DNA of 63,640 bases from Candidatus Nanoarchaeia archaeon (GCA_050292425.1 JBNKLP010000005.1:1-63640); one strand, 5' to 3'; positions 3,993 to 22,836 are shown, counted from the stretch's first letter. The notes: generated from the sequence alone by a model not told the origin. Translations and numbers: made by a program.

Positions 3993-3993
3993 T

Positions 3994-4833
3994 TTAAATC
4001 TTCCCTCCTTTAATTCTATCTTCTTGCAAACCAAGCTCAGCAAGTGCTTTTTTAACTTCTTCCGGATTTGGAGCTTTCCCATGCCATCTATAATCATTTT
4101 CCATAAAGCTAACTCCCTTGCCTGGAACAGTCTTTGCAATAATTGCAACTGGTTTGTCAAGTTTTTCTGCATACTCCAAAGCAGACTTTATATGAACAAT
4201 ATTATTTCCATCAATATCAATTGCTGCAAATCCAAAAGCAGTCATTTTTGCATGTAATAAATCTAATTTAAGAACATTATCAGTAGGACCATCAATTTGT
4301 ATATTATTCATATCAATAATCACTCTTAAATTAGAAAGATTCTCTTTTGTAGCAAACAAAAAAGCTTCCCAACATTCTCCTTCCTCAATTTCTCCATCTC
4401 CAACAAAACAGAAAACCTTGTTCTTCTTCTCATCTCTCTTCAAAGAAGCAGCAAGACCAACTGCCTGAGAAATCCCCTGTCCAAGTGGACCACCTGAATT
4501 CTCAATACCTGGCAAAAGACCAACATGAGGATGTCCTTGAAGCCTTGAACCTATTTTCCTTAAACTCATTAACTCTTTCTTAGGAAAATAACCATTATGT
4601 GCAAGTGTTGCATACAAAACAGGACAAACATGACCATTAGACAAAAAAACAAAATCCCTATTTTTATCTTGTGGTTTTTTTGGATTATGTTTTAAATAAT
4701 CAAAATACAAAACAGTAAAAATATCTGCAAGACCAAGTGAACCTCCTGGATGTCCTGTTCCTGCCTCTCCAATCATCTTGACAATATCTTTTCTGATATC
4801 ATTTGCAATCAAAGCTAATTCTTGTGTTCTCAT
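3994..4833 (-). CDS. tktN: Transketolase, N-terminal (TPP-binding) subunit
   Basis: GTGHPGGSLGLADI, GDGEIEEGECWEA (TPP-binding GDG motif). Split-subunit arrangement. Confidence 0.9.
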   Translation of the reverse strand: MRTQELALIANDIRKDIVKMIGEAGTGHPGGSLGLADIFTVLYFDYLKHNPKKPQDKNRDFVFLSNGHVCPVLYATLAHNGYFPKKELMSLRKIGSRLQGHPHVGLLPGIENSGGPLGQGISQAVGLAASLKRDEKKNKVFCFVGDGEIEEGECWEAFLFATKENLSNLRVIIDMNNIQIDGPTDNVLKLDLLHAKMTAFGFAAIDIDGNNIVHIKSALEYAEKLDKPVAIIAKTVPGKGVSFMENDYRWHGKAPNPEEVKKALAELGLQEDRIKGGKI

Positions 4834-4902: not shown

Positions 4903-5661
4903 TTAATAAAATCCAAATCTGCTCTGACAATAAGAACTTACTTCATAACTCTTTAAACTTGAACATGAAAAATTAGATTCAGCATTTTTCATGATTTCAC
5001 AATCACTTTGTAAATCATCTCCAATTAACTTGGAACAAGCAAAATTATCCAAATCAACAGCAAACTCAGTCTGTAAATAATAAGAATTTACACAATTAAC
5101 TCTCAAATCTTCCTCTAAATTATCACAAAGAGCAACATTCTCATCAATTATGGACATTTGTTGATAAAATGAAACTTCACAATCTTTCTGCAATTCATCA
5201 TCTATTATATCTTTACAAAAAGTAATGTCATTATTTTCTATTGCTCCTTGAAATGCAACAGTTGAAACACAATCATCAATAGAAACTAGTTCATCATCAA
5301 GCTTTTGACAATATGTAATATCCAACTTTTCATAAGCCAAATTTAAAGCTATATTATTCACACACACTTTCTTATATAAATTGTCATCAACCTGACTGCA
5401 ACTTGAAAAATCTTTTGACTTAATCAAAACTGCAACTTGTTGCTGCAATTCAATTTCACCCAGTTCTACATTATCTTCAACAGGAATCACAACCTGATTA
5501 TTAATTTCAACAATTTCAATAAAACTGTCTTGAGATTTGCTTTGCATTGAAAGTTGTATGAAGCTAATCAAAAACAGACCGACAAAAACTATTATTGCAA
5601 CAATAATCACATCTCCTTTATCCCAATTATCATTTGGATTTTTTATATTATCTTTTTCCAT
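4903..5661 (-). CDS. Membrane-anchored protein with six ~31-aa Cys-pair repeats
   Basis: N-terminal TM helix (VIIVAIIVFVGLFLISFIQL), then six repeats of C-x2-[LI]-x-D-[DE]-L-x3-5-C-x16-18. GGTGA lies 9 nt upstream of the ATG. Confidence 0.6.
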   Translation of the reverse strand: MEKDNIKNPNDNWDKGDVIIVAIIVFVGLFLISFIQLSMQSKSQDSFIEIVEINNQVVIPVEDNVELGEIELQQQVAVLIKSKDFSSCSQVDDNLYKKVCVNNIALNLAYEKLDITYCQKLDDELVSIDDCVSTVAFQGAIENNDITFCKDIIDDELQKDCEVSFYQQMSIIDENVALCDNLEEDLRVNCVNSYYLQTEFAVDLDNFACSKLIGDDLQSDCEIMKNAESNFSCSSLKSYEVSSYCQSRFGFY

Positions 5662-5668
5662 TTTTTAT

Positions 5669-7885
5669 TCACCTATAAGGAATCATCACATCATAACCTG
5701 AATAATCTGCATCCTGGCCATAAGCATTCCACCCAACACATTCAGCAAATAAATCACTATGCAAATAACATGTATTGCCAAACGAATTATCAACAGCAAT
5801 GATATCTCCACCAAAATAATCATTTGACTGACCATAAGCATTATAACCTGTACAATCCAGATTTCCATTTGAAAGTAAAATACAAGTTGTATATCCTCCT
5901 GCAGAAATTCCTATTGCATCACCACCAAGATAATTATTGGATTGACCATAATTATTATTTCCCCAGCAATGTACATTACCAGTATCAAATAATATACAAT
6001 TATGAACTCTTCCACTAATTAATGACATTATATTTCCTCCACTGGTATAATCATTAGATTGTCCTAAAGTATTCCACCCCCAGCAATGAACGTTACCAGA
6101 ACTTAATAATGCACAGTTGTGATTTTGACCACTAGATATCGCAACTGCATCACCTCCAAGATAATCATTAGATTGACCATCATAATTCGAACCCCAGCAA
6201 TGAACGTTACCAGAACTTAATAATGCACAGTTGTGTCTACTTCCACTAGATATCGCAATTGCATCACCACCAGTATAATCACTTGATTGACCAGCATCAT
6301 TTGAACCCCAGCAATGTACATTGCCATTTGAACGCAATGCACAATTATGGTTCATTGCTCCTAAAGCAAGTGAGATTACATCTCCACTATTATAATCATT
6401 AGATTGACCCCAATTATTTCTTCCCCAGCAATGTACATTGCCAGAATTAAGCAAAACACAACTATGGTATTGAGCAGACAATATTGGACTCTCCTTTGCC
6501 CAACTAGGTCCAGAAGAAACCCCAAATTTCTTCAAGGATTTTACTCCCGAACTAGTTTGAATTCTAATCTTTGATGCTGCTGAATCTGTTACATCAACCA
6601 AAACAATTCCATACACATCACTTCCTTTGGAAAACCTAAGTGGTGAAGTTAATGTTCCAAGTGGCTCACATGCAATTGCAATATTTGCAGTTCCATCAAA
6701 CACTCTGTAACCACAATCTATATCAGTTGAAGGTCCAACTAACGTATGTTTTTCAATATAACCTATGCCTCCATTTGAGAGTCCAGTATTTCTTCCAAAT
6801 AAATAAAATTCAGTATCAGAAATAGGTTCATAATCTAAGAAATAAACTATTTGTGAAGTACTGTTTAAATCAATCTCTTCATAAGAATTTGATATTGTAT
6901 CATATAATATAAATTTAATATCTCCTAAAGGAAATACTGATGTTAACATCCCAAAAAATATTTTATTTGAACCTGGTGCTGATTTGAGCTCACATCCATA
7001 AAATCCACAAAAATAATTAGGTAAAATTGGAGAATAATCAACAATATTTCCACTAGTTTTGTCAATTTTAAGTAATCTTTTACCTACCCCAAAAAAATCA
7101 TCTCCTAAAACATACATAAAACCATCAGGCATCAAAAGCAAACTACTCTCCATAATATTAGAAGTTGAAAAATTCCAAACATTATTTCCTGTAATTTTAC
7201 TTCTAGCTTGTAAAGAAACATCTGAGTTCATAAAATCATAACCTTTAATATAAACACTATTACTATCTCCCACTATGTCTTCTGCTACATTTTGATTTGA
7301 AGAAAAACTACTGTGTTTTACCCAAAGAATTATTGCAGGATCAACTTTACTTCTTTTTTCAATTCTCCAAGAAGGTACTGAATAAGTATTATCAACTCCC
7401 ACAATATAAATTCCAGTACTATCTAAATATATATTATTAGGTCTATCATTAAAATTAGCTCCAGTATCAATATTCCAACTATTAATGTAATTTCCATCCA
7501 AGTCTCTTTTTTCTAATCTCCAAGAAGTTTGAAAATATATTGCAGTAAGAACTGTCTGAGGACCAACTAAATAAACTCCAGTATTATCAACAGCAATATC
7601 AGTTAAAGAATCAGGATACCCTGTGAAATCTTCTTGCTGGTCCCACAATTCAATTCCAGAAGATGAAAATTTTCTAAAATCCCATTGATCCATAGATAAA
7701 AAACCACCAGAACTAAATCCAAAATATAAATCTCCATTATATCCTCTTAATGAAAAAGGAGCATATGAATTAGCAAAAGTATCTGCACTATTATCAGTTA
7801 CAACCCAATCAATACTATCATTCAAACTATAAACACTAGCAAAACTCCAAAATACCAAAAGTAAAATCAAAATTCTTCTAAACAT
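5669..7885 (-). CDS. Secreted protein: N-terminal beta-propeller-like region plus seven C-terminal RCC1-like repeats
   Basis: I chose the start at ATG 7885 (MFRRILILLLVFWSFASVYS signal peptide), which avoids overlap with the upstream gene. C-terminal repeats read H-N-C-A-L-L-x-x-G-N-V-H-C-W-G-x-N-x-x-G-Q-S. Confidence 0.75.
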   Translation of the reverse strand: MFRRILILLLVFWSFASVYSLNDSIDWVVTDNSADTFANSYAPFSLRGYNGDLYFGFSSGGFLSMDQWDFRKFSSSGIELWDQQEDFTGYPDSLTDIAVDNTGVYLVGPQTVLTAIYFQTSWRLEKRDLDGNYINSWNIDTGANFNDRPNNIYLDSTGIYIVGVDNTYSVPSWRIEKRSKVDPAIILWVKHSSFSSNQNVAEDIVGDSNSVYIKGYDFMNSDVSLQARSKITGNNVWNFSTSNIMESSLLLMPDGFMYVLGDDFFGVGKRLLKIDKTSGNIVDYSPILPNYFCGFYGCELKSAPGSNKIFFGMLTSVFPLGDIKFILYDTISNSYEEIDLNSTSQIVYFLDYEPISDTEFYLFGRNTGLSNGGIGYIEKHTLVGPSTDIDCGYRVFDGTANIAIACEPLGTLTSPLRFSKGSDVYGIVLVDVTDSAASKIRIQTSSGVKSLKKFGVSSGPSWAKESPILSAQYHSCVLLNSGNVHCWGRNNWGQSNDYNSGDVISLALGAMNHNCALRSNGNVHCWGSNDAGQSSDYTGGDAIAISSGSRHNCALLSSGNVHCWGSNYDGQSNDYLGGDAVAISSGQNHNCALLSSGNVHCWGWNTLGQSNDYTSGGNIMSLISGRVHNCILFDTGNVHCWGNNNYGQSNNYLGGDAIGISAGGYTTCILLSNGNLDCTGYNAYGQSNDYFGGDIIAVDNSFGNTCYLHSDLFAECVGWNAYGQDADYSGYDVMIPYR
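5672..6470 (-). repeat. Seven in-frame tandem repeats of about 114 nt (38 aa) encoding RCC1-like blades
   Basis: An exact 44-mer (ccccagcaatgaacgttaccagaacttaataatgcacagttgtg) occurs at 6078-6121 and 6192-6235, an offset of 114 nt. Confidence 0.8.
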
Positions 7886-7895
7886 TTTTAAGATC

Positions 7896-8834
7896 TTAAG
7901 GAATATCAGTCCTAATCCACATCCTTCCAACTGCAGGTGATGCCGGATCAGATGTCCTAGCCTCAATAATAGAGCCTCCAGCAACTGAATCAACATAACC
8001 CTTTGTTGCAACAGTATCAGCAGAGTCCCCTGAAGTTGTCTGAGTTCTCATTCTTATTTTTCCATTAACATCCAATTTCTGAGTAGGATTATTTGTCCCT
8101 ATTCCTACATTTTCATTATTCTTGATCCATACTGCATCCTTATTATCTCCAAAACCTAAAATAATGTCATTTGTGGGACTATCCTGAGCCCTTATTATAA
8201 AATCTCCCACTGTTGCTGAACCCATAAAATGTCCATTACTTAAAGCTAGACCTATCTGTCCATATTCACTTAATACATTCCCTGTTGACCCAAATAATGT
8301 TGGATGTTCTGTTAAAATCAATGCTGGAGAATTTGTTCCTGCTCCAACTGCTGCCATTCCTCCACCTGGAAAAGTAGATTGAACATGAATTGCTGTGATA
8401 GGAGCATTAATTCCAACCCCAACTTTTCCTGAACTTCTATACACATCTCCCCCATTCACACTCCACACTCCACTTCCTGAAACTGCACTTGTTACATAAC
8501 TCTGAGTGGCTACTGGCTGACTATTCATAAGTAAATTCCCAATCACATTCAAATCCCCATTAATAGTATCACCATCAGCATTCACAAAAAGATTATTTAG
8601 CTCTTCTCCTTGATAATAAGTTGAATCATTAAGATGAACGGTTGTATTAAACACAAAATCTCCTCCTCCTTCATCTCCTCCAAAAATACCTGCCCTTATA
8701 TCCTCAGCACTTGTCCAAACTCCATTAGTATCTGCCCACGCAATACTTCCAAAAACTAGGACAAGCAATAAAAAAATATTTGTCCCAAAGTTAAAATTTG
8801 TTTTGAAATTATCAGAAACCATAACAACTTTCAA
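7896..8834 (-). CDS. Secreted tail-fibre-like protein
   Basis: Signal peptide (IFLLLVLVFGSIAWA). Two VAT[QK][SG]YV motifs and NVGIGTNNPTQKLDVNGKI. The listed start is TTG at 8834. The first ATG is at 8822. Confidence 0.55.
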   Translation of the reverse strand: MKVVMVSDNFKTNFNFGTNIFLLLVLVFGSIAWADTNGVWTSAEDIRAGIFGGDEGGGDFVFNTTVHLNDSTYYQGEELNNLFVNADGDTINGDLNVIGNLLMNSQPVATQSYVTSAVSGSGVWSVNGGDVYRSSGKVGVGINAPITAIHVQSTFPGGGMAAVGAGTNSPALILTEHPTLFGSTGNVLSEYGQIGLALSNGHFMGSATVGDFIIRAQDSPTNDIILGFGDNKDAVWIKNNENVGIGTNNPTQKLDVNGKIRMRTQTTSGDSADTVATKGYVDSVAGGSIIEARTSDPASPAVGRMWIRTDIP

Positions 8835-8889
8835 AGTTAATCATTTAAAATAATGTATATTCACCTATAAGTAAACTCAATTAAATAAA

Positions 8890-9591
8890 TTATCTTTTCA
8901 CAAAAACAAATTCTCCAGGAATAAGAAAATTAACATTTGAATGTGGAATAATATAATCTATTTTATTATATTTCAAGGAATCTCTAAAATCTTTATTATT
9001 AATAGAAATAGACAAATCATTAAACTCAAAAAGTTCAAATCCAACTGAATATGCAAGATTAATGAAATCAACAATTTTACTGGCTCTGCATTTCCAGTAA
9101 TACTCCCAATGTTCTCTATTCTTTCTTTGAAATTCATCCTCTTTAGGAAAAACAAACATATCCTTCACATAAAATATACCTCCTTTTTTTAAATTGGCAA
9201 AGACATTCCTAAAAGTTTTCTCAACATTCGAATAACACATACTTTCAAGAGCAAGAAAATGGGTTGCATCTTTGTATTCATAATTTTCCATATTTGCAAT
9301 TTCAAAATTTGAATTAGGATAATTTAACAAACATTGCTTTACACACTCCTTACTTGTTGAAATTCCAACTGAATTACAAAACTCCCTTAAAGAATCAACA
9401 ACATATCCACTTCCACAACCAAGATCAACAACTTTTGAACCTTTTGATATTTTTGCTTTTTTAATAATATATTTCAGAAAATCTTGCTTAGTCTCTCCTA
9501 CAAGTGCAACATGATAAAAAGAATAATTAGAAAATATGTCCTTAGAATGAATATCATAAAATTCCTTTTCATTCTTCCAAGGCAAATTCAT
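8890..9591 (-). CDS. Class I SAM-dependent methyltransferase
   Basis: Motif I VVDLGCGSGYVV, and post-I/II layout (FLALESMCY, LKKGGIFYV). Confidence 0.75.
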   Translation of the reverse strand: MNLPWKNEKEFYDIHSKDIFSNYSFYHVALVGETKQDFLKYIIKKAKISKGSKVVDLGCGSGYVVDSLREFCNSVGISTSKECVKQCLLNYPNSNFEIANMENYEYKDATHFLALESMCYSNVEKTFRNVFANLKKGGIFYVKDMFVFPKEDEFQRKNREHWEYYWKCRASKIVDFINLAYSVGFELFEFNDLSISINNKDFRDSLKYNKIDYIIPHSNVNFLIPGEFVFVKR

Positions 9592-10016
9592 CTTTTTCCA
9601 AAAAACTTTTTCTTTCGTACTCTCTTAACACTATCTATTCCAATTCTTGAAGGCAAAGCACAAAGTGAAGCAAGCACACATTTAATCTCAAAATAACTAA
9701 TATCAACATTAATTTTATCTTTTATAATTGAAAGTTTATCAACATTTTCATCTTCTATAACCTGCATTACATCATTAATTTTATCTTCATCAACAACATC
9801 CTCTACACTAATCAAACTTTTGGCAATAAGTTCAACAATTTGTCTCTCTATACTCTCAACTTTCATTTCTCGGATCTTGGCAATCTTCTCAATAGAATTT
9901 CTTTTCATAAAATAATCATAAGTTTCTTCCAAAGTTTCAGTAAGTGGTTTTCTCTTGAATTCCATAGCCCAATTAGCCCATGAAAATTTTTCAACATCAA
10001 CACTCATAATAAACAA
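9588..10016 (-). CDS. Stand-alone helicase-associated HTH (HTH_40-like) domain protein
   Basis: ETYDYFMKRNSIEKIAKIREMKVESIERQIVELI...ISYFEIKCVL resembles the C-terminal HTH_40 module of UvrD-like helicases, recognised from memory. 4-nt overlap with the methyltransferase gene. Confidence 0.4.
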   Translation of the reverse strand: MFIMSVDVEKFSWANWAMEFKRKPLTETLEETYDYFMKRNSIEKIAKIREMKVESIERQIVELIAKSLISVEDVVDEDKINDVMQVIEDENVDKLSIIKDKINVDISYFEIKCVLASLCALPSRIGIDSVKRVRKKKFFGKR

Positions 10017-10092
10017 ATAATTCTTTAGATTTAAATAACTTTCCTCTCTATAATCAAATTTAAAAATAAATACTTCTATTTAAAAGATAGAG

Positions 10093-10665
10093 ATGAAAAT
10101 AATTTCAAAAAAAAACATCAAAAATCATGAACAATTCTACCTTGATGAAATATTAAATGGAAAAATCTTCATCTATCCAACTGATACAATTTATGGAATA
10201 GGATGTGTGGCAACAAACAAAAATTCAATTCAAAAAATAAAACAAATCAAACAAAGAGACTCATCAAAACCCCTCTCAATTATTGCACCATCAAAGAACT
10301 GGATTCAAACCAACTTTAAAATACTTGAAAAACACAAATCATATTTTAATAAACTTCCAGGACCCTTAACATTAATATTTGAAAAAAAAGAAAACTCAAA
10401 TCTCTCAAAAGAAATATCACCTACAAACTCAATTGGAATAAGAATTCCAGATCATTGGATTTCAAATCTAATTGAAAAAACTAAAAAACCATTCATAACA
10501 ACATCAATTAATATTTCTGGAGAACCAAACATAACTCAAATCACTCAACTATCTCAACAAATTACAAACAAAGTGGACTATATAATAGATGAAGGAGAAT
10601 TAAATAACAAACCATCAACAATTATTGACTTAACAAAAGAAGAACCAATTATATTAAGAAAATAA
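10093..10665 (+). CDS. tsaC: L-threonylcarbamoyladenylate synthase, short TsaC/YrdC/Sua5 form
   Basis: YPTDTIYGIGC, KPLSII, GIRIP, TSINISGEP motifs. 190 aa. Confidence 0.85.
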   Translation: MKIISKKNIKNHEQFYLDEILNGKIFIYPTDTIYGIGCVATNKNSIQKIKQIKQRDSSKPLSIIAPSKNWIQTNFKILEKHKSYFNKLPGPLTLIFEKKENSNLSKEISPTNSIGIRIPDHWISNLIEKTKKPFITTSINISGEPNITQITQLSQQITNKVDYIIDEGELNNKPSTIIDLTKEEPIILRK

Positions 10666-10666
10666 A

Positions 10667-11464
10667 TTACTTTTTCTTCTTTGAATCCACTTCCTTAAAT
10701 CTTCTCATCTCCTTTCTAATCTCTCTGAAAAGCAATACAACAAGTAAGAAGTTAATCAAAATCCAGAACACAACTGAACCTCTTATATCTCCAATCTTTA
10801 TTGGAAGATATGAATACTCAAAAGCAATAGTATTTGGAGTTTCCTTATCAACATTCCAATATGCTGTTTTATCATCTGAATCAATACTCTCAGGTTCCAA
10901 ACTCAAATAAGTATAATGATAACCACTAGGTAACTTCATTTTCAAATTTCCTTTTTCAATGGGAATTGTTGTATACTCTTTTATAGGAACCTCTAAATTC
11001 TTAAAAAACAGTCCTGAAGGATCATAAATTATTTTATACTCCAAATTAATCTGATACTCAAAACCTGGCAAAACTGGAGTAAATATCTCAAGTGCAACAA
11101 TAACATAATCTGCTGTCTCTAAAACTCTATGAGAAATATCTTTTCCATACCTATCAGTAACTTTAATATTCTCAACTTCAATTGCTGAAACACTATTATT
11201 CACAACCTTGTTAATCTTGAATTCCACACTTCCTGGCACTATTCCCACAGTGTGTATATTCTTCAAAGTCATCTCTTTTTTAACTTCAATTGTATTATCC
11301 TTGTTTATAGTAAGTTCTGTATTATAATTTGAAAAAACTTCAACAGCAGCATATGAAGACACACACATCAAAAAAAACAAAAACAAAATCATAACTGGCC
11401 TTAACAAGGATTTCATATAAAAATCTTTAAATCTTAAATATTTAAATCTTTGGCTAACACTCAT
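10667..11464 (-). CDS. Signal-peptide protein with a C-terminal TM anchor and basic tail
   Basis: N-terminal hydrophobic segment (VMILFLFFLMCVSSYAA). C-terminal VVFWILINFLLVVLLF then REIRKEMRRFKEVDSKKKK. Starts 12 nt after the giant gene's stop. Confidence 0.55.
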   Translation of the reverse strand: MSVSQRFKYLRFKDFYMKSLLRPVMILFLFFLMCVSSYAAVEVFSNYNTELTINKDNTIEVKKEMTLKNIHTVGIVPGSVEFKINKVVNNSVSAIEVENIKVTDRYGKDISHRVLETADYVIVALEIFTPVLPGFEYQINLEYKIIYDPSGLFFKNLEVPIKEYTTIPIEKGNLKMKLPSGYHYTYLSLEPESIDSDDKTAYWNVDKETPNTIAFEYSYLPIKIGDIRGSVVFWILINFLLVVLLFREIRKEMRRFKEVDSKKKK

Positions 11465-11476
11465 AGTAACAACCCC

Positions 11477-14400
11477 TCACTTCTTCCTCTCCAAAGGATC
11501 AAATCCAGTTAAAATCATATTATTATAATCAAACTCTCCTAGTGAAGACAAATTAAAATTAACATCCCACATATTTGAAGAGTTCCATTCTCCTGAATAA
11601 TTCAAAAGAACTCCCTCATCCAGAATTAATGAAGAAATATTAAACTGATGCAAAGTTCCATTTACTCCACCAACATCAACCAAATCAATACTCTCATTCA
11701 AAGTAGAATACCTAGAAGAAGTTGAAAAAGTAAAGCCTGATGACAAATTAAACTCATCAGAAACAAATGCATAAACAAACAAACCACTATTAATTGGACT
11801 CTGATACTCACCCAAATTCCTCAAACTCAAACTAACTCCAAACAAGCCTTCTCCAAACTTAACAATACTTCTATCAAATCTCAATTTCCTTGACTCAAAC
11901 AATTCTTCCAAAATCCTAAGTGTCTTATCCAAACTAAGACCATTTACATTTGGATTTAAATTTGAAACTGCATATCCTGCAACCAAATATTCACTATCAA
12001 TTTCACCTGTTCCATTAACTGTAAAAGTTACAACTGTGCTCTCCCCATTATTCAAACTAACCTGTCTCAAATTAGTATTTGTAACCCACATTGGAACTGT
12101 ACTTGAATCATTCACCAAAACCCTTCCAAAATAAGTTAAATTCAAATCATCAACTGCAGCATCTGCGCTCCATCCTGTAACTCCATCATATCTTATTCTA
12201 GTTGCAATGTCCCCAATATAAGAACTCAAATTAATATATGTATTCAAATAAGGATCTGTTTGTAATGTTTGTTGCTGGCCTGTTCTCGACCATACATCAT
12301 TCACCCAACTACTTCCATCAAACACATCCAAATGCAAAGTTCCAACATTAGTTCCAAACATATGATACCAAAAATCAAAACCTGCATTTTCCTTATCATT
12401 TGAAAAAGTAGGTCCTGTTAAAATTGCAGAAGTATCAGCACCTTGACAAGCATTACCAGATGCTTCAACATATCCATACCAACCAAATGCTGTTTTCAAA
12501 GTATTATCAATAGTAGGACCTGTTCCTGTTGAAGGAGTTCCTCCCTGATCACGTATCCAATCACAACTTCCTCCATCAATACTCCACTGACCAAACCCAA
12601 GTTCCAAATCTTCAAAATATGAAATATAATCATACAAATAAAAACTCACATTAACCAATCCACAATCTCCTCCCTCGCAACTCACATTAAAACTCACATT
12701 AACAAGTTGATTTTGATAAACATCAATGGTAGGCTCACTTCCCAAAAAATCAACAACAATATTTGGGAACACAACATCAACACTCCAATTAACTCCATTA
12801 TCTAACCAATAAGAATTCTCAACCATATCTTCCACATAAACATTCCAGCTATAATTACCATTCTTTCTAAAATTATATGTGAAATTAAGAAGTGAAGTTG
12901 AAAGACCACTCAAATCAATAGTCTTTGTTCCATCCAAATTCATATTCTCATCCCAAACATAAAGTTTTGCAAAACCTAACTCATTATTATCCGAAACATT
13001 AGCAACAAAATTAACTTGACTAGTTGAAAAAAATGTTCCACTAATAGGAAAAATCTTGTAACCAGTTGGAGGAACAACCTCGGCAATCGTCAAATTAATC
13101 TGCGATGTGTCAACACCAGAACCAAGACCTGAATTAATATCACTAGAAACAAAGGCCGAAAAACTATCTAAAACATTTCCTGTTGCATTAATATAAAAAG
13201 TCACAACTACGCTCTCATTAATATTCAAATTAACAGTATTCGAATTTGTAGTATTAGTCCAAAAAGGACTATCTGCTGAGTTATTCATAACATAAAAAAT
13301 ATTCTCCCATACAGAGATATTTAAATCATCAACGGCAATATCACTTCCCCAATTAGTTCCTCTCTCTCCGACAATTCTAAATTGACCATTTCCACTAAAA
13401 TCAAAATTAAAACTATTATTATACCAAATATCTCCTTGATCCAAACTCAAATTCCACAAGTTATACCAAGAACTTCCATCATTAAAATCAACATAAATAC
13501 TTCCTAAATCAGGTCCAAACATATGATACCAAAAATAAAAATTAACAGTCCCTGATGATGAAAAAATTGGACTTAAAAAATATGCCTGATCACCATTGGC
13601 AACAGGATTAGATGTCTCAAAATAAGTATACCAACCAGTTGCACTGCCTAAAGTATGATCAACACTTGGACCTGTTCCTGCAGAACCTGTAGGTCCCTGA
13701 TTCAAAGTCCAATCCTGCTGGTCTCCAATAGCAGTATTAGTCCAACTACCTAGAGTTCCAGTCTCAAAATCTTCAAAATAAACATAAGTTTGTGTCAACT
13801 CCTCATAAAGCAAAGTCACATTAACCAATCCACAATTACCAACATGGCAGCTAACATTAACTTGAAGAGGTCTAAAATTATACTGATTAATATAAAAAGG
13901 CGAAGAAACATTCCCTACATAATCAATTGTCAAATAAGGAAAAATTACTGTCAAACTCCAGTTGTTACCCAAAAACACATCATTACCAAAAGTATCATTA
14001 ATTTCAATATTCCACAAATAATCTCCTGCCATACTGAAATTGTAATCAATACTAAATATTGAACTAATATTACCTTGCAAATCCATAACTACACTATCAT
14101 AATATACTCCTTCACTTGTCCAAATCCAAAGCTTTGCACTATCAAGTCCCATATTATCAGTTGCACTTGTACTAAAACTCAGATTATTAAAGTTAAATGA
14201 CGAACCATTAACTGGAGAAATCTTGACTCCACTTGGTACTTGCAAATCTGAAATAGTAAAATTAAAAACAGAACCTGCTGCCCCAGAACCAAGACCTGAA
14301 TTTATATCACTAGAAGCATAAGATCTTATGCTCTCATAAAGACTGCCTGTTGCATTAACATTAAAACTAACAACTATGCTCTCATTTACATTCAAATTAA

Positions 14401-17400
14401 TTGTTTGTGGAATACTTGAATTACTCCAAAAAGGAATACTTGAAGTAGTTGGAAAATCCAAAAACTGATACTCAACAACACTTATATTTAAATCATCAAC
14501 TGCAATATCACTTCCCCAGTTAGTACCTCTCTCACCAATAAACCTAAGTTGCGTATTCCCATTATAATCAAAACTTACAACTCTATTGTACCAAACATCT
14601 CCTTGATCTCCACTAATAGACCAAAGTGTTGACCACACACTTCCATTCAAAAACTCAACCTGTAAAGTTCCCAAATCAGGACCAAGCATATGATACCAAA
14701 AATCAAAAACAACAGTTCCAGATGATGAAAAAACAGGACTTACTAAATATGCCTGATCTCCATTGGCAACAGGATTGGATGTCTCAAAATATGTATACCA
14801 ACCAGTTGCACTGCCCAAAGTATGATCAACACTTGGACCTGTTCCTGCAGAAGGAGTTCCTCCTTGATCCAGAGTCCAATCCTGCTGATCGCCAATAGCA
14901 GTATTAGTCCAACTACCTAAAGTTCCAGTCTCAAAATCTTCAAAATAATTGTAAGTTGTAACAAGTTGCTCAGAAAGCAGACTAACATCAACAGAACCAC
15001 AATTACCAATATGACAACTAATATTCACAAAAATTTGTCCATTTTGAGTTCCATCAACATAAAAAGGATCACTAAATCCATTAACATACTCCAAAGTCAG
15101 ATAAGGAAAAATTACTGTTAAAGTCCAATTACTACCTAAAAAAACACTATTTCCAAAAGTATCATTAACCTCAATATTCCACATATAATCTCCAGCCATG
15201 CTAAAATTATAATCCATATTAAATAAACTACTAATTGCACCACCTAAATCCAAAATCTTAGAATCATAAAAACTTCCATCTAAATTCCAAACCCATAACT
15301 TTGCGCTATCAAGTCCAAAATTATCATTTGCACTTGCACTAAAACTCATATTATTCACAGTAAAAGATGAGCCATTAATTGGAGAATTTTTGCTTCCAGA
15401 AGGAGGCTGCAAATCAGCAATAATAATATGCTTATCATTACTCTTTGATGCAATAGTATAATCACTCTGAGCTTTTGCCATCGAAAAAATTGGGATTGTA
15501 TCTCCAACATTTCCTGTTGCATTAACATTAAAACTCACTAATTGGGATTGTCCTTGATTCAGATTTACACTCAGCATAGCATCTCCCATTATCCACAATG
15601 GAGAACTACTTGAATTAAGAATCTGTTTTCCATTCGCATAAATTCTCAAATCATCAATTGCAGCATCTGCGCTCCACCCAGTAACACCATCATATCTTAT
15701 CCTAACTTGAATATCTCCTGAATATGAACTCAAATCCACTGCAGCCTGCAAATAAGGATCTGTCTGTGTTGCCTGCTGAGCTCCAGTAACTGACCATACA
15801 TCATTAATCCAACTACTGCCGTCAAACACATCAAGATGAAGTGTACCAAGTGCAGTTCCAATCATATGATACCAAAAACTAACATTAGTTGTCTCTACCC
15901 CTGCACTAAATACAGAACTTGTAAGAACTGCTTGAGTATCTGCTCCTTGACAAGCATTACCTGATGCTTCAACATATGCATACCATCCTGTTGCTGTTCC
16001 AAGTGTATTATCAATAGTAGGTCCAGTATTTGCTGAAGGAGTTCCCCCCTGATCACGTACCCATGTACAACTTCCACCATCTGCTGTCCAATTTCCAAAA
16101 CCAACTTCCAAATCTTCCAAATAATCATAAATGAAATTTCTTCCTAAACTCACATCAATAGCACCACAATTTCCAGTATTATCACAACTCACATTAAGCA
16201 AAACTGTATCTGCACTATTCTTCTCAATAAGTAAGTCTGAATAATCATCAAAATCATCATTAAACACATATCCCGGACCAACTCCCATATAAGCACTAAA
16301 ATGAGTTACTTCAAACCAGACATGTGTATCATTCTGCTCAAAACCAAAACCTGAATCCTGCCAGAAAGTAACACAACTTCCATTAACAAAATCAGAACAG
16401 GTCAAAATACTTCCAATTCTCAAATCTGAAGATTTTGACAAAATAATTGCAGTCTTTGAGAAATTTAAAGCTTCAACATTAAGAATTGGCGTTAATATAC
16501 CACTCCCCTCATCACTTGAAATTCCACTATCCAAAACCTCCATCTTTGAAAAGCTTCTAACATCCAAATCATCAAACTTTAATCTTACATTCTCTTTGGC
16601 TACAGTTACATTTACAACATTCAACTTTGATTTGCTCTTTGAAAAACCTTTAATCTCTACTCCAAGATTGTTTTCATAATCACTAACTTCAACAGACTTC
16701 AAAACATTCAAATCAAACTTATTCTCAAAACCAAAAATATCTCTTATTACAATATTTTCATTTGCATCATAAATTATTCCTCTTAATTTAATATTTCTTT
16801 TTTCATTCCTATTATGTTCTTCCTTTTTATCCTCAAACTTATTTTTTTTATCATCAACAAATTCAAAACCTTTTGGTAATATTATATAATTCAAAAAATC
16901 TTCATCAATGACTTCAATTTCAAATTCAAACTCTTCTCCTATAACTATGCTTCTTGGGACTTCCTTAAAACTCACAGTTCTAATATCTTCTACTCTTTTA
17001 GAAATATACAAATTTCCAAACTCACATTTACCTACATCTTCAATTTCAAATTCAGAATCTTCACAAAATTTTCTTGAAAAAAAATAATAGTTTTCTATTC
17101 CTTCAGGAACTTTATTCAAATTACTTCTTTTTTGAAAATAACTTTCAAAATCAAAAACTCCTCCATCATTTCTAATCCTATTCTCCTTAATAATTTCAAA
17201 AAACATATCTTCAAAATCAAAACTACTTTCATAATCCGCAAAATCATTCGAATCAATTTGAGTTCCATCATAAAAAATTGCCTCAAACTCTTTAAATAAA
17301 TCTCCAGACTCTGAATACACTCTTACTTCATAAGTATCAAGCAAAATCTCCCTATCTACAACAAAAGAAAATTGACAGCTCCCTATACAAGTAACATCAA

Positions 17401-17944
17401 ACACACTAATAGATTCAGGAGAAGTCTTTGGTGAAATCTCAAAATAATAAAATTCTGGATCATATGAATCAGTATCAATAAAACCATTTACATTTAAAGT
17501 TCCATTCTTAATATAATACTTATCCTTCAAATGAACATCATAAACTGCTTTTGGTTGTTCCAAACTAAATTCCAACTCCTTCTTATAATAAGTATTCTTG
17601 TTCTTTGCAGTAATTAGAATACTATAATCATCAAAAAATACTTTCTTCAAAGGCACATAAACACTACAACTTTTCTCACAAGAAACTTCCTTTTCAGAAA
17701 CAACCAAACTATCCTGAGCATAAATGATTTCAATATCAAACTCTTGCTCTCCTCCAAAATCATTGTCAATCATAAGATGAACTCCATAATCTGAATTCTC
17801 CTGCACACCTGAACTCACAACATAAGCATCAAAAAATCCTGTTGATGAAGTATATCTTATTGCATCCACATTAACACTAAAAAACAAAATAGCAAAAACT
17901 AAAAACACTCCAAAAACAAACATATTCTTAGTAATTTTTGCCAT
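11477..17944 (-). CDS. Giant secreted surface protein (about 2155 aa) with four MAM-like domains in ~390-aa super-repeats
   Basis: Signal peptide MAKITKNMFVFGVFLVFAILFFSVNVDA from ATG 17944 (the listed TTG at 17965 is less likely). Four copies of FE..G..W......DW......TPS..TGP..DHT.G...GWY.Y.E.S......A.L.SP.F......F.FWYHM.G...G.L.V......W..LW...G.QG..W........SDIA[VI]DDL. Confidence 0.85.
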   Translation of the reverse strand: MAKITKNMFVFGVFLVFAILFFSVNVDAIRYTSSTGFFDAYVVSSGVQENSDYGVHLMIDNDFGGEQEFDIEIIYAQDSLVVSEKEVSCEKSCSVYVPLKKVFFDDYSILITAKNKNTYYKKELEFSLEQPKAVYDVHLKDKYYIKNGTLNVNGFIDTDSYDPEFYYFEISPKTSPESISVFDVTCIGSCQFSFVVDREILLDTYEVRVYSESGDLFKEFEAIFYDGTQIDSNDFADYESSFDFEDMFFEIIKENRIRNDGGVFDFESYFQKRSNLNKVPEGIENYYFFSRKFCEDSEFEIEDVGKCEFGNLYISKRVEDIRTVSFKEVPRSIVIGEEFEFEIEVIDEDFLNYIILPKGFEFVDDKKNKFEDKKEEHNRNEKRNIKLRGIIYDANENIVIRDIFGFENKFDLNVLKSVEVSDYENNLGVEIKGFSKSKSKLNVVNVTVAKENVRLKFDDLDVRSFSKMEVLDSGISSDEGSGILTPILNVEALNFSKTAIILSKSSDLRIGSILTCSDFVNGSCVTFWQDSGFGFEQNDTHVWFEVTHFSAYMGVGPGYVFNDDFDDYSDLLIEKNSADTVLLNVSCDNTGNCGAIDVSLGRNFIYDYLEDLEVGFGNWTADGGSCTWVRDQGGTPSANTGPTIDNTLGTATGWYAYVEASGNACQGADTQAVLTSSVFSAGVETTNVSFWYHMIGTALGTLHLDVFDGSSWINDVWSVTGAQQATQTDPYLQAAVDLSSYSGDIQVRIRYDGVTGWSADAAIDDLRIYANGKQILNSSSSPLWIMGDAMLSVNLNQGQSQLVSFNVNATGNVGDTIPIFSMAKAQSDYTIASKSNDKHIIIADLQPPSGSKNSPINGSSFTVNNMSFSASANDNFGLDSAKLWVWNLDGSFYDSKILDLGGAISSLFNMDYNFSMAGDYMWNIEVNDTFGNSVFLGSNWTLTVIFPYLTLEYVNGFSDPFYVDGTQNGQIFVNISCHIGNCGSVDVSLLSEQLVTTYNYFEDFETGTLGSWTNTAIGDQQDWTLDQGGTPSAGTGPSVDHTLGSATGWYTYFETSNPVANGDQAYLVSPVFSSSGTVVFDFWYHMLGPDLGTLQVEFLNGSVWSTLWSISGDQGDVWYNRVVSFDYNGNTQLRFIGERGTNWGSDIAVDDLNISVVEYQFLDFPTTSSIPFWSNSSIPQTINLNVNESIVVSFNVNATGSLYESIRSYASSDINSGLGSGAAGSVFNFTISDLQVPSGVKISPVNGSSFNFNNLSFSTSATDNMGLDSAKLWIWTSEGVYYDSVVMDLQGNISSIFSIDYNFSMAGDYLWNIEINDTFGNDVFLGNNWSLTVIFPYLTIDYVGNVSSPFYINQYNFRPLQVNVSCHVGNCGLVNVTLLYEELTQTYVYFEDFETGTLGSWTNTAIGDQQDWTLNQGPTGSAGTGPSVDHTLGSATGWYTYFETSNPVANGDQAYFLSPIFSSSGTVNFYFWYHMFGPDLGSIYVDFNDGSSWYNLWNLSLDQGDIWYNNSFNFDFSGNGQFRIVGERGTNWGSDIAVDDLNISVWENIFYVMNNSADSPFWTNTTNSNTVNLNINESVVVTFYINATGNVLDSFSAFVSSDINSGLGSGVDTSQINLTIAEVVPPTGYKIFPISGTFFSTSQVNFVANVSDNNELGFAKLYVWDENMNLDGTKTIDLSGLSTSLLNFTYNFRKNGNYSWNVYVEDMVENSYWLDNGVNWSVDVVFPNIVVDFLGSEPTIDVYQNQLVNVSFNVSCEGGDCGLVNVSFYLYDYISYFEDLELGFGQWSIDGGSCDWIRDQGGTPSTGTGPTIDNTLKTAFGWYGYVEASGNACQGADTSAILTGPTFSNDKENAGFDFWYHMFGTNVGTLHLDVFDGSSWVNDVWSRTGQQQTLQTDPYLNTYINLSSYIGDIATRIRYDGVTGWSADAAVDDLNLTYFGRVLVNDSSTVPMWVTNTNLRQVSLNNGESTVVTFTVNGTGEIDSEYLVAGYAVSNLNPNVNGLSLDKTLRILEELFESRKLRFDRSIVKFGEGLFGVSLSLRNLGEYQSPINSGLFVYAFVSDEFNLSSGFTFSTSSRYSTLNESIDLVDVGGVNGTLHQFNISSLILDEGVLLNYSGEWNSSNMWDVNFNLSSLGEFDYNNMILTGFDPLERKK
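12134..16126 (-). repeat. Four tandem ~1167-1170-nt coding super-repeats (SC-x3-5-C sandwich / MAM / Ig-like / Big-like modules)
   Basis: MAM-like segments lie at about 15638-16126, 14477-14950, 13310-13783 and 12134-12622. The inner two copies are near-identical at nucleotide level with an offset of exactly 1167 nt (cctgctg at 14881 vs 13714). Confidence 0.85.
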
Positions 17945-17971
17945 TTTAAGTTGTATTAAATACAACTTAAA
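17945..17971 (-). promoter_or_regulatory. 27-nt perfect palindrome (13-bp arms, 1-nt centre) abutting the giant gene's ATG
   Basis: tttaagttgtatt-a-aatacaacttaaa, read directly. The ATG occupies 17942-17944. A TATA-like ATTATATAAAT lies about 40 nt upstream. Confidence 0.6.
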
Positions 17972-18048
17972 GGAATCATTTATATAATATTTATCAGTTC
18001 AAAAAAAAAGTGACATCCCAGCCATACAAAATAAAACCTAAAACAAGT

Positions 18049-18405
18049 TTATATCATTTGTGATAATTTATCAATCAGATCATCCATATCTTCATACTCA
18101 ATAAATTCATCTGAAACTACTTTCAAAGAACTTGAAAACTTGCTTACAGTCTTATAAATGAAAATAACTCTCTTTTCAAACATTTCAGCCCAACCAAGTT
18201 CAATTCCTTGTCCAGTCGAACAAAAAGAAACCTCTGCTAAAATCAAATCAGAATCTCTAATTATCTCTTTAGAATTAATAAATTGTCCTTCAATTTCATG
18301 AGGCAAAATTATTTCATTTTCTTCATTTAACTTAGAATTCCTAAGTGGCAAATAAAGCTCATTTTTAAAATCAAAACTACTTGAATGACAAACATAAATT
18401 TTCAT
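18049..18405 (-). CDS. Nucleoside 2-deoxyribosyltransferase-like protein
   Basis: MKIYVCHS..., SDLILAEVSFCSTGQGIELGWAEMFEKRVIFIY resembles the NDT-superfamily core (D..A......G...E.G.A). ATG at 18405. The listed TTG is at 18426. Confidence 0.4.
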   Translation of the reverse strand: MKIYVCHSSSFDFKNELYLPLRNSKLNEENEIILPHEIEGQFINSKEIIRDSDLILAEVSFCSTGQGIELGWAEMFEKRVIFIYKTVSKFSSSLKVVSDEFIEYEDMDDLIDKLSQMI

Positions 18406-18567
18406 AATTATATCTAAAAATAACAATTAATAAACTTTACTATTAAAACCAAATTTGAAGATTTTTCTTTAATTTGAGGCATTTTATTTCGTAGGCGTAG
18501 CAGCGCTATGGTAGAAATGAAATAACAAAAAAGTAAAGAAAAAGAACAAATTTAAAAATTTAGTTCT

Positions 18568-20385
18568 TTAGAAAAGAACTAACAACAAACCAACAGCAGC
18601 AGCAATACCTACCAAGAAGTATTCAACCTTAGCTGAAAGCACACCATAAACTGAATCAACAGTAAGAGCTTTTGTAGCTCCATATTCTCCAACATTCAAA
18701 GGATCGACACCAGTTAGGAATAAGTCTTCAAAATCGAACTCTCCTGATCCTGATACATTATATTCAACAGTCCAAGTATTATTTACATTCTCAGCACCAC
18801 CCCAAGCATCTAAAGATGAATTAAATGGATTACTGTTTCCTATAATTCCAAACTGATGCATTGTACCATTATAAGTAGGATCATTCAAAGCTTGTGATGC
18901 ATTTGTTGTATTATACCAAGTTGAACTTGAAAACACAAAAGGACTTGTCAAACTAAATGTATTAGGTATGAAATTATAAACCATAATTGCCTGATCAGAT
19001 GGTGTTGGTGATGTTCCAAGGTTTGAAACCTTAATGAAAACACTATAATTTCCTTCTGCAAGTCTTGTAATATTTCTTGTAATCTTAATCCAGTAACCAG
19101 TAGCAAGATAAAGCTCTTTCACATAAACTGAATTATTTCCATAAGTAACACTTCTGTTAGTCAACTGAAGCCCATCATTAATAATATAACTATTCATATC
19201 CATCCAAACAATAGGTGATGCACTAAATGTATAATTAAATATCCATTCATTTCCTACATTATCCCAAGTTCCTGTTGATGAATTAATAATCATATTTGCA
19301 GGATATGAAGTATTTAAAGAACTTCCAGAAATTGAATCATTATCAATTGAAGAAGGATTTGTAGATCCTGCATTTCTAACACTCACCCAAAAACTCACCT
19401 GAGTCAAATTAACATCCACATTTGAAGGATTTGAAACATTTCCTGTAATAATCCAAGTTGCATTATCTCCTGTTAAAGTATTATTCATATATTTCTCAAA
19501 ACTAAGCTCCAAATCTAAAAGAGCATCAATGTCTGTTAGTGCAACTCTTGAAACTGTTGTATTAATAGCATAAGTAATTGTTGAATTAATCATCTGATAT
19601 GTATTTGCCACAGTAACTCCTGAAGGCGTATTTACATCGTATGAAATATCTGTAACATTTCCTGAATTAAAACAACTTCCTCCCCACAAATTCCAATTAA
19701 TTGTTCTATTATCAGCAGTAAAAGTTGCATTAGCTGCATCAGCTCCTGCCATAGTTGAATTATCATAAGTAAAATTAAAATATGAACCACTCACATTAAT
19801 TGTCAAAGCATTCTGAACAACATTAATATTGTAAATACAATTCACAGGATATGTAGTGGAGTTCATTGTATTTTGAACATTATCAGTCACAGTAATTGGA
19901 AGTCCTGCAAATATTTTTGTATCACTATACCCTGTTGTGAAATTCAACGGAGGAGCTACGTTTGTAGTATTAACATTATAAGTAAATGTTGTATTCAAAC
20001 CTGCACCCAAATCAGGAATAGTCAAAACTGCATAATCCCCAGTTACATTAACCAAAGTAACATAACCTTGTGCTCCTGCTGAAAAAGCAAGACCATAAAT
20101 ATCAGCAATTGGACTAATTGTCAAAACCAGATTCTCAACTGATTCGCTCGCATGAGTATTATCAACAAAAATTTGTCCACTAACTGTGTACAAAGATCTA
20201 TTCTCATTAGCATCCACATACAAACCTCCTCCAGCAGAAAGAGGGTCATAAGTTACAACTTCATTAACATATTCACTAAACTGAACATCAACAATATTCG
20301 CAGCAGCATTAACACATGCAACTGCAGACATCATAACCAGCATAGCAAGTAATAGTTTTTTTAGTGCACCAAAAACATATACCAT
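18568..20385 (-). CDS. Sequon-dense surface (S-layer-like) glycoprotein candidate with a C-terminal TM anchor
   Basis: Signal peptide (LLLAMLVMMSAVACVNA). About 32 N-x-S/T sequons by eye in 605 aa. The C-terminal VGIAAAVGLLLVLF helix ends the protein. Confidence 0.6.
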   Translation of the reverse strand: MVYVFGALKKLLLAMLVMMSAVACVNAAANIVDVQFSEYVNEVVTYDPLSAGGGLYVDANENRSLYTVSGQIFVDNTHASESVENLVLTISPIADIYGLAFSAGAQGYVTLVNVTGDYAVLTIPDLGAGLNTTFTYNVNTTNVAPPLNFTTGYSDTKIFAGLPITVTDNVQNTMNSTTYPVNCIYNINVVQNALTINVSGSYFNFTYDNSTMAGADAANATFTADNRTINWNLWGGSCFNSGNVTDISYDVNTPSGVTVANTYQMINSTITYAINTTVSRVALTDIDALLDLELSFEKYMNNTLTGDNATWIITGNVSNPSNVDVNLTQVSFWVSVRNAGSTNPSSIDNDSISGSSLNTSYPANMIINSSTGTWDNVGNEWIFNYTFSASPIVWMDMNSYIINDGLQLTNRSVTYGNNSVYVKELYLATGYWIKITRNITRLAEGNYSVFIKVSNLGTSPTPSDQAIMVYNFIPNTFSLTSPFVFSSSTWYNTTNASQALNDPTYNGTMHQFGIIGNSNPFNSSLDAWGGAENVNNTWTVEYNVSGSGEFDFEDLFLTGVDPLNVGEYGATKALTVDSVYGVLSAKVEYFLVGIAAAVGLLLVLF

Positions 20386-20440: not shown

Positions 20441-20884
20441 TCACTCTAATTGGTGAATTTTCTCAATTCTCCTCTGATGTCTTTCAATCCCACTAAATTT
20501 TTCCATCAAAAAAGTACTTACAATATCTTTGTATTTAGAATGATCAAACTCCCTTGCTCTAAGTGTCAAAACATTGGCATCATTATCATACCTTGCCATC
20601 TTTGCAGAATATTCATCATATGCAAAAGCTGCTCTAATTCCCTCAATCTTATTGGCAGCAATTTGCATTCCAGTCCCACTCCCACAAATCAAAATTCCAA
20701 AACTCCCATTATGTTTCATAACCTCATCGCAAACAAGCTTTGCATAAACAGGATAATCTACCTTGTCAGTAGGACTATGTGTTCCTAAATCAACTACCTC
20801 TAAACCTAGTGAAGCAAGTATTCCAGTAACTTCTCCTTTAGCTTCAAAACCTGCCCTGTCTGAACCTATGAAAACTTTTGCCAT
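20441..20884 (-). CDS. rpiB: Ribose-5-phosphate isomerase B
   Basis: IGSDRAGFEAK, ICGSGTGMQIAANK, NDANVLTLRAR motifs. 147 aa. Confidence 0.9.
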   Translation of the reverse strand: MAKVFIGSDRAGFEAKGEVTGILASLGLEVVDLGTHSPTDKVDYPVYAKLVCDEVMKHNGSFGILICGSGTGMQIAANKIEGIRAAFAYDEYSAKMARYDNDANVLTLRAREFDHSKYKDIVSTFLMEKFSGIERHQRRIEKIHQLE

Positions 20885-20933
20885 AACAACAAATCAGAAA
20901 AACTATAAATAAACTTAATTCATCATTTCAAAA

Positions 20934-21521: not shown

Positions 21522-21580
21522 AAATGCAAAAATAATTTCTATTATATAAACCTAAGCAAAAAAGAATTAAGATAAAATCT

Positions 21581-22537: not shown

Positions 22538-22539
22538 TT

Positions 22540-22836
22540 TTATTTTTTAAATAATCGAATATATAATTTTTCAATTCCAAAACCAATGAAATAAAAAATT
22601 ATTAAATTAACAATAACCAATATCGCATACCATAAATAAACAACAATTGTAGAACTTGCAAATCTTCCTAAACTTAAACCTATGGCAATCCAGTTTAGAA
22701 TTGGAAGAGCCATAATCATTCCACAATAATCTCCATAACAAGTTAAAGCATCAAAAATAGAATAAAGAACAACTAATAAATAAATAACTCCCATTCCAAT
22801 TCCCGCATTTGAGATACTTAACTTGTATAATTTCAT
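22540..22836 (-). CDS. Small three-TM membrane protein (98 aa)
   Basis: Three hydrophobic segments. The start codon directly abuts the tal stop. Its stop lies 2 nt before the SIS-like gene. Confidence 0.5.
   Translation of the reverse strand: MKLYKLSISNAGIGMGVIYLLVVLYSIFDALTCYGDYCGMIMALPILNWIAIGLSLGRFASSTIVVYLWYAILVIVNLIIFYFIGFGIEKLYIRLFKK

Follow-up and report, generated by a model that had tools for sequence, protein, structure and literature searches.

Which of the surface proteins encoded at positions 4903-20385 of a 63,640-nt archaeal DNA belong together, and what might they do on the cell? This DNA, called "the window" below, comes from a Candidatus Nanoarchaeia archaeon (GCA_050292425.1, JBNKLP010000005.1:1-63640), and the stretch in question carries ten open reading frames (ORFs), numbered g1 to g10 by rising coordinate. 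A first-pass annotation had read it as a single cell-surface island, built from eukaryote-like and phage-like modules and serving an episymbiont for host attachment. We know of no cultured Woesearchaeota, the archaea to which named relatives of these proteins belong in part, nor of any account of their envelope make-up or their means of holding partners. In Lake Dziani Dzaha, 'S-layer' genes reportedly rank with the top Woesearchaeota transcripts (PMC11606122). The stretch is found here to hold two independently conserved surface gene sets with housekeeping genes between them, not one island. Set A (g7, g8 and g10) is a cassette of an AF2028-family protein, a partner resembling Ost1/ribophorin I, and a giant that shares a module with the first. 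Set B comprises g1, g2 and g3.

The features of set A are:

18568-20385, minus strand: g10, 605 aa; signal peptide, four beta-sandwiches, disordered tether, terminal transmembrane (TM) helix at residues 587-605
18682-19143, minus strand: membrane-proximal module of g10, residues 415-568; common to g8, ends with an invariant G-x-D-P
18571-18630, minus strand: C-terminal TM helix of g10, residues 586-605; basic tail absent
11477-17944, minus strand: g8, 2155 aa; signal peptide, conserved N-terminal part (~28-334), four ~390-aa super-repeats of immunoglobulin (Ig) and MAM domains, AF2028_C-like C-terminus, no TM helix
11906-16228, minus strand: g8 super-repeats U1 (15065-16228), U2 (13898-15064), U3 (12722-13897) and U4 (11906-12721)
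11480-11911, minus strand: C-terminal module of g8, residues 2012-2155; the chain stops 4 residues past G-F-D-P
10667-11464, minus strand: g7, 265 aa, probable start 11416; signal peptide, ~185-aa beta-sandwich ectodomain, TM helix 231-249, basic tail

Gene order in the stretch and in related archaea

Synteny was assessed by tblastn of all proteins of the stretch against 45 related loci, of which 3 are truncated and 42 assessable. In 26 of the 45, the g10 homologue has a g7 homologue 40-270 bp downstream, in the same orientation. The order g10, one giant, g7 is found in 6 further loci, and overall g10 is followed by g7 in 32/42 assessable ones. In the nearest relatives (58-60% identity), a giant of 1617-1622 aa comes after g10 and before g7, amid unrelated neighbouring genes. 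Furthermore, a Hydrothermarchaeota genome ('Ca. Pyrohabitans') encodes an AF2028-like protein, an adjacent 236-aa g7 homologue (hhalign 98.8%, E 6e-17), and, after it, a giant that spans at least 2267 aa and includes a beta-helix domain. Because the core pair g10+g7 also occurs in this genome, it is neither DPANN- nor symbiont-specific, and the family itself is named after a protein of Archaeoglobus fulgidus, AF_2028. The proposal of an episymbiont-specific set is thus not sustained.

Set A stands beside set B in none of ~50 related loci. Since no member of set B occurs in any set-A locus, the two are not one system, and the single island of the first-pass annotation separates into two gene sets with non-conserved housekeeping genes between them. 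The convergent order of g7 and the neighbouring Sua5(TsaC) gene (10093-11464) recurs in at least one further metagenome contig (L069, 39-1452), and this junction is therefore older than the window's organism. In some genomes, clusters hold two or three g10 paralogues (L005/L006 of archaeon UBA583, DAXK01000015.1; L009; L013; L014). A further ~555-aa DUF11 protein with a C-terminal TM helix directly follows g7 there.

The ten ORFs themselves are present at the coordinates given in this text, and the same genes appear in an independent public gene call for an identical 12.6-kb contig (GCA_050291385.1, locus L001). Starts are probably shifted in three of them, to 8822 (not 8834) in g3, to an internal Met at 11416 in g7, and to 18405 in g9. 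By hydropathy scan, g1 is a signal-anchor protein, g2, g3 and g8 carry signal peptides, and g7 and g10 combine a signal peptide with a C-terminal TM helix, in agreement with the earlier count of six exported or membrane-anchored products out of ten. Such proteins are enriched in the stretch (6/10; elsewhere in the window ~9/51; Fisher p 0.01). A hydrophobic segment is found in none of g4, g5, g6 and g9, and their Pfam matches are all of cytoplasmic type. The remark that all lie on the minus strand is true of the six surface genes, but has no evidential value, as this strand holds most genes of the window.

Giant surface adhesins of DPANN archaea are already known as a concept. A cassette of an AF2028-family protein, an Ost1-like partner and a module-sharing giant appears to be undescribed in the searched literature, where no description of it was found, and the earlier remark that no described system maps onto these genes still stands. 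What was an odd list of proteins thereby resolves into a cassette of three defined parts that recur throughout the lineage, namely a membrane-anchored glycoprotein, its Ost1-like partner, and a giant that lacks an anchor and whose lectin middle can be swapped. Metaproteomics, antibodies and cryo-electron tomography gain concrete targets from it, and host or substrate specificity might be predicted from the variable region of the giant.

The three cassette proteins and their proposed working

The C-terminal module held in common by g8 and g10, noticed in the first reading of this DNA, is readily recovered. BLASTP aligns residues 2012-2151 of g8 with 422-563 of g10 at 37% identity (E 7e-21), and a profile of the module retrieves g8 at E 6e-38; the Pfam record for g8 lists MAM only. 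Run against 1.84 billion representative proteins, this profile retrieves just 143, in two classes. In the short class (550-1030 aa), another 36-71 aa come after the module and contain a TM helix, without basic tail in every member checked, as in g10. In the giant class (929-3231 aa), the chain mostly ends 1-8 residues past an invariant G-x-D/E-P, and there is no hydrophobic segment.

Homologues of g10 number 84, with a near-constant length of ~600 aa, 24-60% identity, and PF27408 in all of them. Those with named sources come from Woesearchaeota, Nanoarchaeota or Nanobdellota metagenome-assembled genomes (MAGs), in keeping with extracellular or envelope proteins of a Woesearchaeota-like (DPANN) archaeon. 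For g10 itself, a PF27408 match is on record; neighbouring-gene tables give the name AF2028_C for this family and AF2028_3rd for PF27409. The AF2028 Pfam families are modelled on, and named after, the uncharacterised AF_2028; no paper on AF_2028 or PF27408 was found in the literature. The AlphaFold2 (AF2) model (predicted local distance difference test, pLDDT, 76) shows four beta-sandwich domains, a low-confidence tether of ~35 aa and a terminal helix. Conservation climbs from the distal to the membrane-proximal domains, the module and D3 being the most conserved part. The description of g10 as sequon-dense is borne out by 32 sequons vs 13.7 expected from composition-matched shuffles (z 5.8); g8 has 57 vs 31.6 expected (z 5.0), and the excess is confined to these two proteins. 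Signal peptide, TM tether and sequon excess are observed in g10; a dominant, lattice-forming place in the envelope, as in archaeal S-layers, is a putative one. As a PGF-CTERM/archaeosortase substrate, g10 does not qualify, with no NCBIfam match, no basic tail, and no archaeosortase in the window. In three homologues (P0060, P0063 and P0080), a subtilase (PF00082) or LamG (PF13385) domain is naturally fused to a full-length g10-like body, which fits g10 as a display scaffold.

The ~2155-aa g8 contains the four MAM domains attributed to it (PF00629, 4 stretches, E 1.3e-75; 253 bits vs a gathering cut-off of 26.4), and remains a credible adhesin. Its super-repeats are of two subtypes, U1 resembling U4 (55% identity) and U2 resembling U3 (56%). 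Giants at the same locus position share the N-terminal ~300 residues of g8 and the C-terminal module, and their middles differ:

Window, L005, L009 and L014: MAM
L008: Laminin_G_3, H_lectin, DUF2341
L002: DUF2341, H_lectin, Filamin
L044 and L046: CBM96, fn3

The most conserved protein of the cassette is g7, with 59 homologues and a mean column identity of 70% in the ectodomain. It has one sequon. Its AF2 model (pLDDT 86; predicted template modelling score, pTM, 0.72) displays a single beta-sandwich ectodomain and a TM helix. The top Foldseek matches are ribophorin I in four human oligosaccharyltransferase (OST) structures and Ost1 in three yeast ones (8pn9_E, 6s7t_E, 6s7o_E, 8b6l_O, 8agb_E, 6ezn_A, 7oci_A; E 1e-8 to 3e-7, TMq ~0.5, 252-264 aligned columns). 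Signal peptide, beta-sandwich and single TM helix, the fold and topology of ribophorin I/Ost1, are all found in g7. Next in the list come the N-domains of M1 aminopeptidases, and because they score almost as well, the OST-like fold of g7 is not unique to OST. At the sequence level, Pfam Ribophorin_I (PF04597) gives weak matches in 3/33 g7 relatives (best E 1.9e-4) and none to the g7 of the window at E<=10. Family profiles built from a narrower and a broader alignment find no OST subunit among PDB sequences, and no Ribophorin_I match is on record for three divergent relatives. The possibility that g7 is a shortened g10 paralogue was rejected, hhalign having aligned the signal peptides only.

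The joint reading of these data, to which a probability of roughly one half is given, is that g10 is a tethered, glycosylated basal envelope protein, g7 its conserved partner, and g8 an anchorless variable adhesin docked by its copy of the module. Export of g10 would proceed through Sec; heavily N-glycosylated, the protein would stay in the membrane by means of its terminal helix. It may form the basal envelope layer as an S-layer-type protomer, its four beta-sandwiches stacked on the ~35-aa tether and possibly arranged in a lattice. The g7 ectodomain would stand level with the membrane-proximal module of g10, just above the membrane, g7 being its putative assembly or anchoring partner. g8 would be secreted and glycosylated, and its module is predicted to dock non-covalently into the g10/g7 layer; retention of this anchorless protein at the surface is suggested because its last 140 residues copy the membrane-proximal module of g10. 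Pointing away from the cell, the Ig-like domains and the MAM domains, which are ConA-like jelly-rolls, would then offer ~1,900 residues for the binding of glycans or proteins of another cell or of a particle. Swapping of the giants' middles between lineages (MAM, LamG, CBM96, H-lectin, DUF2341, beta-helix) is what one would expect of a region that determines specificity. Giants with lectin and Ig domains have been proposed earlier as host adhesins of DPANN archaea (bioRxiv 10.1101/2023.02.24.529834), and a putative but plausible role of g8 in host attachment fits these proposals.

Several observations weigh against this reading. No g7 occurs within the flank in 10/45 loci, some of which are second paralogues and some have a giant reaching the locus end. 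No match between g10 and characterised S-layer families was obtained in Pfam, NCBIfam, PDB sequences or Foldseek. Its best Foldseek matches are AP2 mu-homology domains (E 4e-6), a likeness set aside as generic two-sandwich similarity without functional meaning. By hhalign, g10 and g7 have no mutual homology. Host adhesion is not needed to explain the cassette, because the latter is present in a presumably free-living thermophile, and polysaccharide particles are equally conceivable ligands of MAM and LamG domains.

In another view, set A forms no S-layer: g10 and g7 would be a platform only sparsely distributed in the membrane, from which the giant scavenges nutrients, binding polysaccharide or particles through its lectin and CBM domains for substrate capture. 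The CBM96, LamG, DUF2341 and beta-helix domains of the relatives' giants are typical of carbohydrate binding or processing, and the subtilase fusions and the occurrence of the cassette in non-symbiotic archaea argue in the same direction. It is nevertheless held unlikely: the constant length and high conservation of g10, and its several paralogues in almost every related MAG, are those of a structural envelope protein, and g8 has no catalytic domain. MAM domains are, moreover, best known for protein-protein adhesion, which counts against scavenging. As for all six surface genes forming one host-attachment apparatus specific to episymbiosis, their physical clustering, the enrichment noted above, the DPANN-like nature of the organism, and the lack of encoded pili and archaella in the window would suit it. 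Yet sets A and B, with unrelated housekeeping genes between them, never occur together in related loci, the cassette of relatives lies in other genomic contexts, and the core pair reaches Hydrothermarchaeota. The stretch, seemingly inserted in a pentose-phosphate cluster, also has no compositional island signature, and such an apparatus is judged very improbable.

A different role for g7 is suggested by its best structural matches. Instead of a structural anchor, it may be a functional equivalent of Ost1/ribophorin I, a facilitator specific to its substrates that holds the sequon-dense nascent g10 and g8 at AglB, the single-subunit OST. The matches to RPN1/Ost1 extend over the whole length including the TM helix, Ribophorin_I is the only non-trivial Pfam family hit by several relatives, the neighbours of g7 are exactly the proteins with a significant sequon excess, and g7 is more conserved than they are, as expected of a machinery component. 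This role is rated as rather unlikely, in view of the negative profile searches, the nearly equal scores of M1 aminopeptidase N-domains, the absence of aglB from the window and related loci by motif scan, and a single ectodomain where Ost1 has two. Going further, g7 might be a true remote homologue of Ost1/ribophorin I beyond eukaryotes and Asgard archaea, present in Woesearchaeales, Hydrothermarchaeota and probably Archaeoglobus, and linked genetically to the envelope proteins richest in sequons. The non-catalytic OST subunit would then descend from an older envelope-biogenesis partner, one that may have escorted glycoproteins to AglB or bound them after glycosylation, and AF2028_C would be a non-covalent docking foot, not recognised before, for anchorless giants. 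This extended scenario is quite improbable and is put forward as a speculation. Among these alternatives, the reading of g10, g7 and g8 as a basal layer, its partner and a docked adhesin is retained.

Set B and the surroundings of the stretch

The three genes of set B are:

7896-8834, minus strand: g3, secreted fibre-like protein; signal-peptide-like N-terminus, conserved N-terminal segment, ~45-aa fibre motif
5669-7885, minus strand: g2, secreted protein; signal-peptide-like N-terminus, SBBP-like propeller repeats, conserved ~65-aa linker domain, seven-blade RCC1_2 propeller
4903-5661, minus strand: g1, type II signal-anchor protein, TM 17-35; six extracellular Cys-pair repeats

Spaced 7-10 bp apart, they probably encode a second, smaller surface appendage composed of a fibre, a double propeller, and a membrane-anchored protein with disulfide-rich repeats. 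In three metagenome contigs (L048-L050), g1 homologues (33% identity) adjoin a g2-like propeller and small g3-like fibres, the latter ending in '...GQMWLRTDI', like g3. At L048 (367-762 and 3868-4497), the g3-like fibres start with a long hydrophobic N-terminus, then 'TGPTALPPGGNVDPP', which recalls pilin-like or Candidate Phyla Radiation (CPR)-type surface proteins.

The fibre motif of g3, 'NVGIGT..P..KLDVNGKIRMR...DTVATKGYVD', is shared with phage tail-fibre and receptor-binding proteins (RBPs), and is present in 18 IMG/VR contigs. Relatives with this motif carry Gp53-like_C, BppL_N, H_lectin or collagen domains. Against PHROG, g3 matches tail and tail-fibre families at residues ~232-294 only (E 1e-5 to 1e-4), and Pfam gives no match. 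The tail-fibre likeness claimed for g3 is a partial one, and the term phage-like, applied to the whole stretch, comes down to one fibre motif of ~45-100 aa. A match of g3 to LinA in the PDB (E 0.002) was dismissed as compositional; PDB sequence searches with g1, g3, g7 and g10 yielded noise only, and NCBIfam has no match for any surface protein of the stretch.

The RCC1-like propeller assigned to g2 is recovered by RCC1_2 (PF13540) in 6 stretches (E 8e-49; 162.7 bits vs a cut-off of 22). By eye, g2 has seven 38-aa blades with a Cys pair in each; WD40_RLD falls below its cut-off in g2, and sequons are depleted (z -2.7). Inside the propeller, at 6047-6316, the DNA contains 2.4 tandem copies of a 114-nt unit with 85% DNA identity, which points to a recent blade duplication. 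In g1, the 12 Cys form six pairs that recur every ~30 aa, as the earlier mention of Cys-pair repeats implied.

The remaining genes of the stretch are:

18049-18426, minus strand: g9, small cytoplasmic protein; weak nucleoside 2-deoxyribosyltransferase-like match (Pfam E 0.0015)
10093-10665, plus strand: g6, Sua5/TsaC threonylcarbamoyl-AMP synthase (Pfam E 1e-46, and TIGR00057); housekeeping, in neither set
8890-10016, minus strand: g5 (HTH_40) and g4 (S-adenosylmethionine (SAM)-dependent methyltransferase), with a 4-nt overlap; cytoplasmic, not conserved neighbours

No homologue of g9 occurs in any related locus examined, and g9 is an interloper within set A, outside the cassette. TATA-like boxes are seen by eye upstream of g10 and g8, and a T-run downstream of g9; a sigma-70 promoter and terminator scan of the stretch is uninformative, the organism being archaeal. 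The base composition of the stretch is that of the rest of the window, without a shift, and its MAM and RCC1 domains are ordinary domain matches, which does not support the label eukaryote-like. A mobile-element or viral origin of the whole stretch was rejected, given the absence of a compositional shift and of an integrase, the sole viral link being the motif of g3.

The gene set of the window is archaeal (Hjc, FttA, L10/P0, eIF6). A complete oxidative and non-oxidative pentose-phosphate cluster flanks the stretch, with transketolase on one side and RpiB plus transaldolase on the other. Its genes lie at 2086-4833 (glucokinase, split transketolase) and 20441-28266 (RpiB, transaldolase, 6PGL, G6PD, RPE, 6PGDH), and the oxidative branch is unusually full for a DPANN genome supposed to be reduced. 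At 26205-27344, ribulose-phosphate 3-epimerase and a dual-specificity protein phosphatase (DSPc) domain form one fused protein, which is unusual. A bacterial-type GyrA (31715-34153) and a bacterial/eukaryotic-type MetK (58051-59214; S-AdoMet_synt N/M/C) stand amid otherwise archaeal genes.

The usual archaeal surface machinery, reported missing by the first-pass annotation, was indeed not found: no Pfam match to pilin, archaellum ATPase, prepilin peptidase, archaeosortase or AglB occurs among 50 window ORFs, nor does the combination of class III pilin, ATPase, platform and prepilin peptidase that marks a type IV pilus or archaellum locus. A scan for the WWDYG motif of aglB returned no ORF in the window or in ~50 related loci. 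Two polytopic proteins are without any Pfam match, one at 52031-53968 (645 aa, ~11 TM), which lacks the WWDYG motif of AglB, and one at 48349-49923 (524 aa, 4 TM). A Rce1/CPBP-like intramembrane protease (51100-51978) adjoins both. Further secreted candidates outside the stretch are found at 46663-47577 and 40185-40622; the N-terminus of one is lipobox-like (…LFFSGC), the other is a small signal-peptide protein.

Likeness to known systems

For the pair g10+g7, a close parallel in organisation is the two-component slaA-slaB S-layer operon of Sulfolobales, where a large glycosylated outer protein also lies beside a small bitopic partner with signal peptide, beta-sandwich and C-terminal TM helix, and where the small partner is likewise more conserved than the large protein. 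In contrast, no sequence or fold match was found, g10 has its own TM helix, and a third, anchorless giant shares the last domain of g10. Among euryarchaeal S-layer glycoproteins, Methanosarcina MA0829 (DUF1608) and Haloferax csg resemble g10 by their signal peptide, stacked beta domains, dense N-glycosylation sequons, short flexible tether and terminal TM helix. They differ in that g10 has no DUF1608, PGF-CTERM, or Pfam/NCBIfam S-layer match, and is made instead of AF2028_3rd and AF2028_C domains; its lattice is a presumed one.

Among the giant surface proteins of DPANN archaea, nanohaloarchaeal SPEARE and the lectin/glucanase and Ig-domain proteins are, as g8, very large and secreted, with Ig-like and ConA-like lectin domains, and a role in host recognition has been proposed for them. 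Unlike these giants, g8 has no protease or nuclease domains; its ends are conserved, its place between g10 and g7 is fixed, and its module is a copy from an envelope protein. With the metazoan MAM receptors (meprin, neuropilin/A5, RPTP mu), g8 shares MAM domains well past the Pfam threshold and an extracellular, glycosylated context. However, it is archaeal, is organised in ~390-aa super-repeats with CARDB/Ig-like domains, and has no TM or catalytic part, and in its relatives MAM is interchangeable with LamG, CBM96 or H-lectin. In set B, g3 shares with phage tail fibres and RBPs (Gp53-like, BppL) the ~45-aa fibre motif seen in the viral contigs and the '...G.MW.RTD' end, but has a Sec signal peptide and no recognisable head domain, and its gene is cellular, with those of a propeller and a membrane anchor next to it.

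The likeness of g7 to Ost1/ribophorin I comprises the signal peptide, a luminal or extracellular beta-sandwich, the single TM helix and the basic cytosolic tail, in addition to the best structural match. The differences are the one ectodomain instead of two, the lack of a profile match, a location not beside aglB, and an occurrence in DPANN and Hydrothermarchaeota. Eme et al. 2023 (PMC10307638) give Asgard archaea as the only prokaryotes with Ost1 homologues reported to date. If the likeness of g7 reflected homology, an Asgard "eukaryotic signature" protein would have older and broader archaeal roots, and its original job might be studied in a simple two-gene context.

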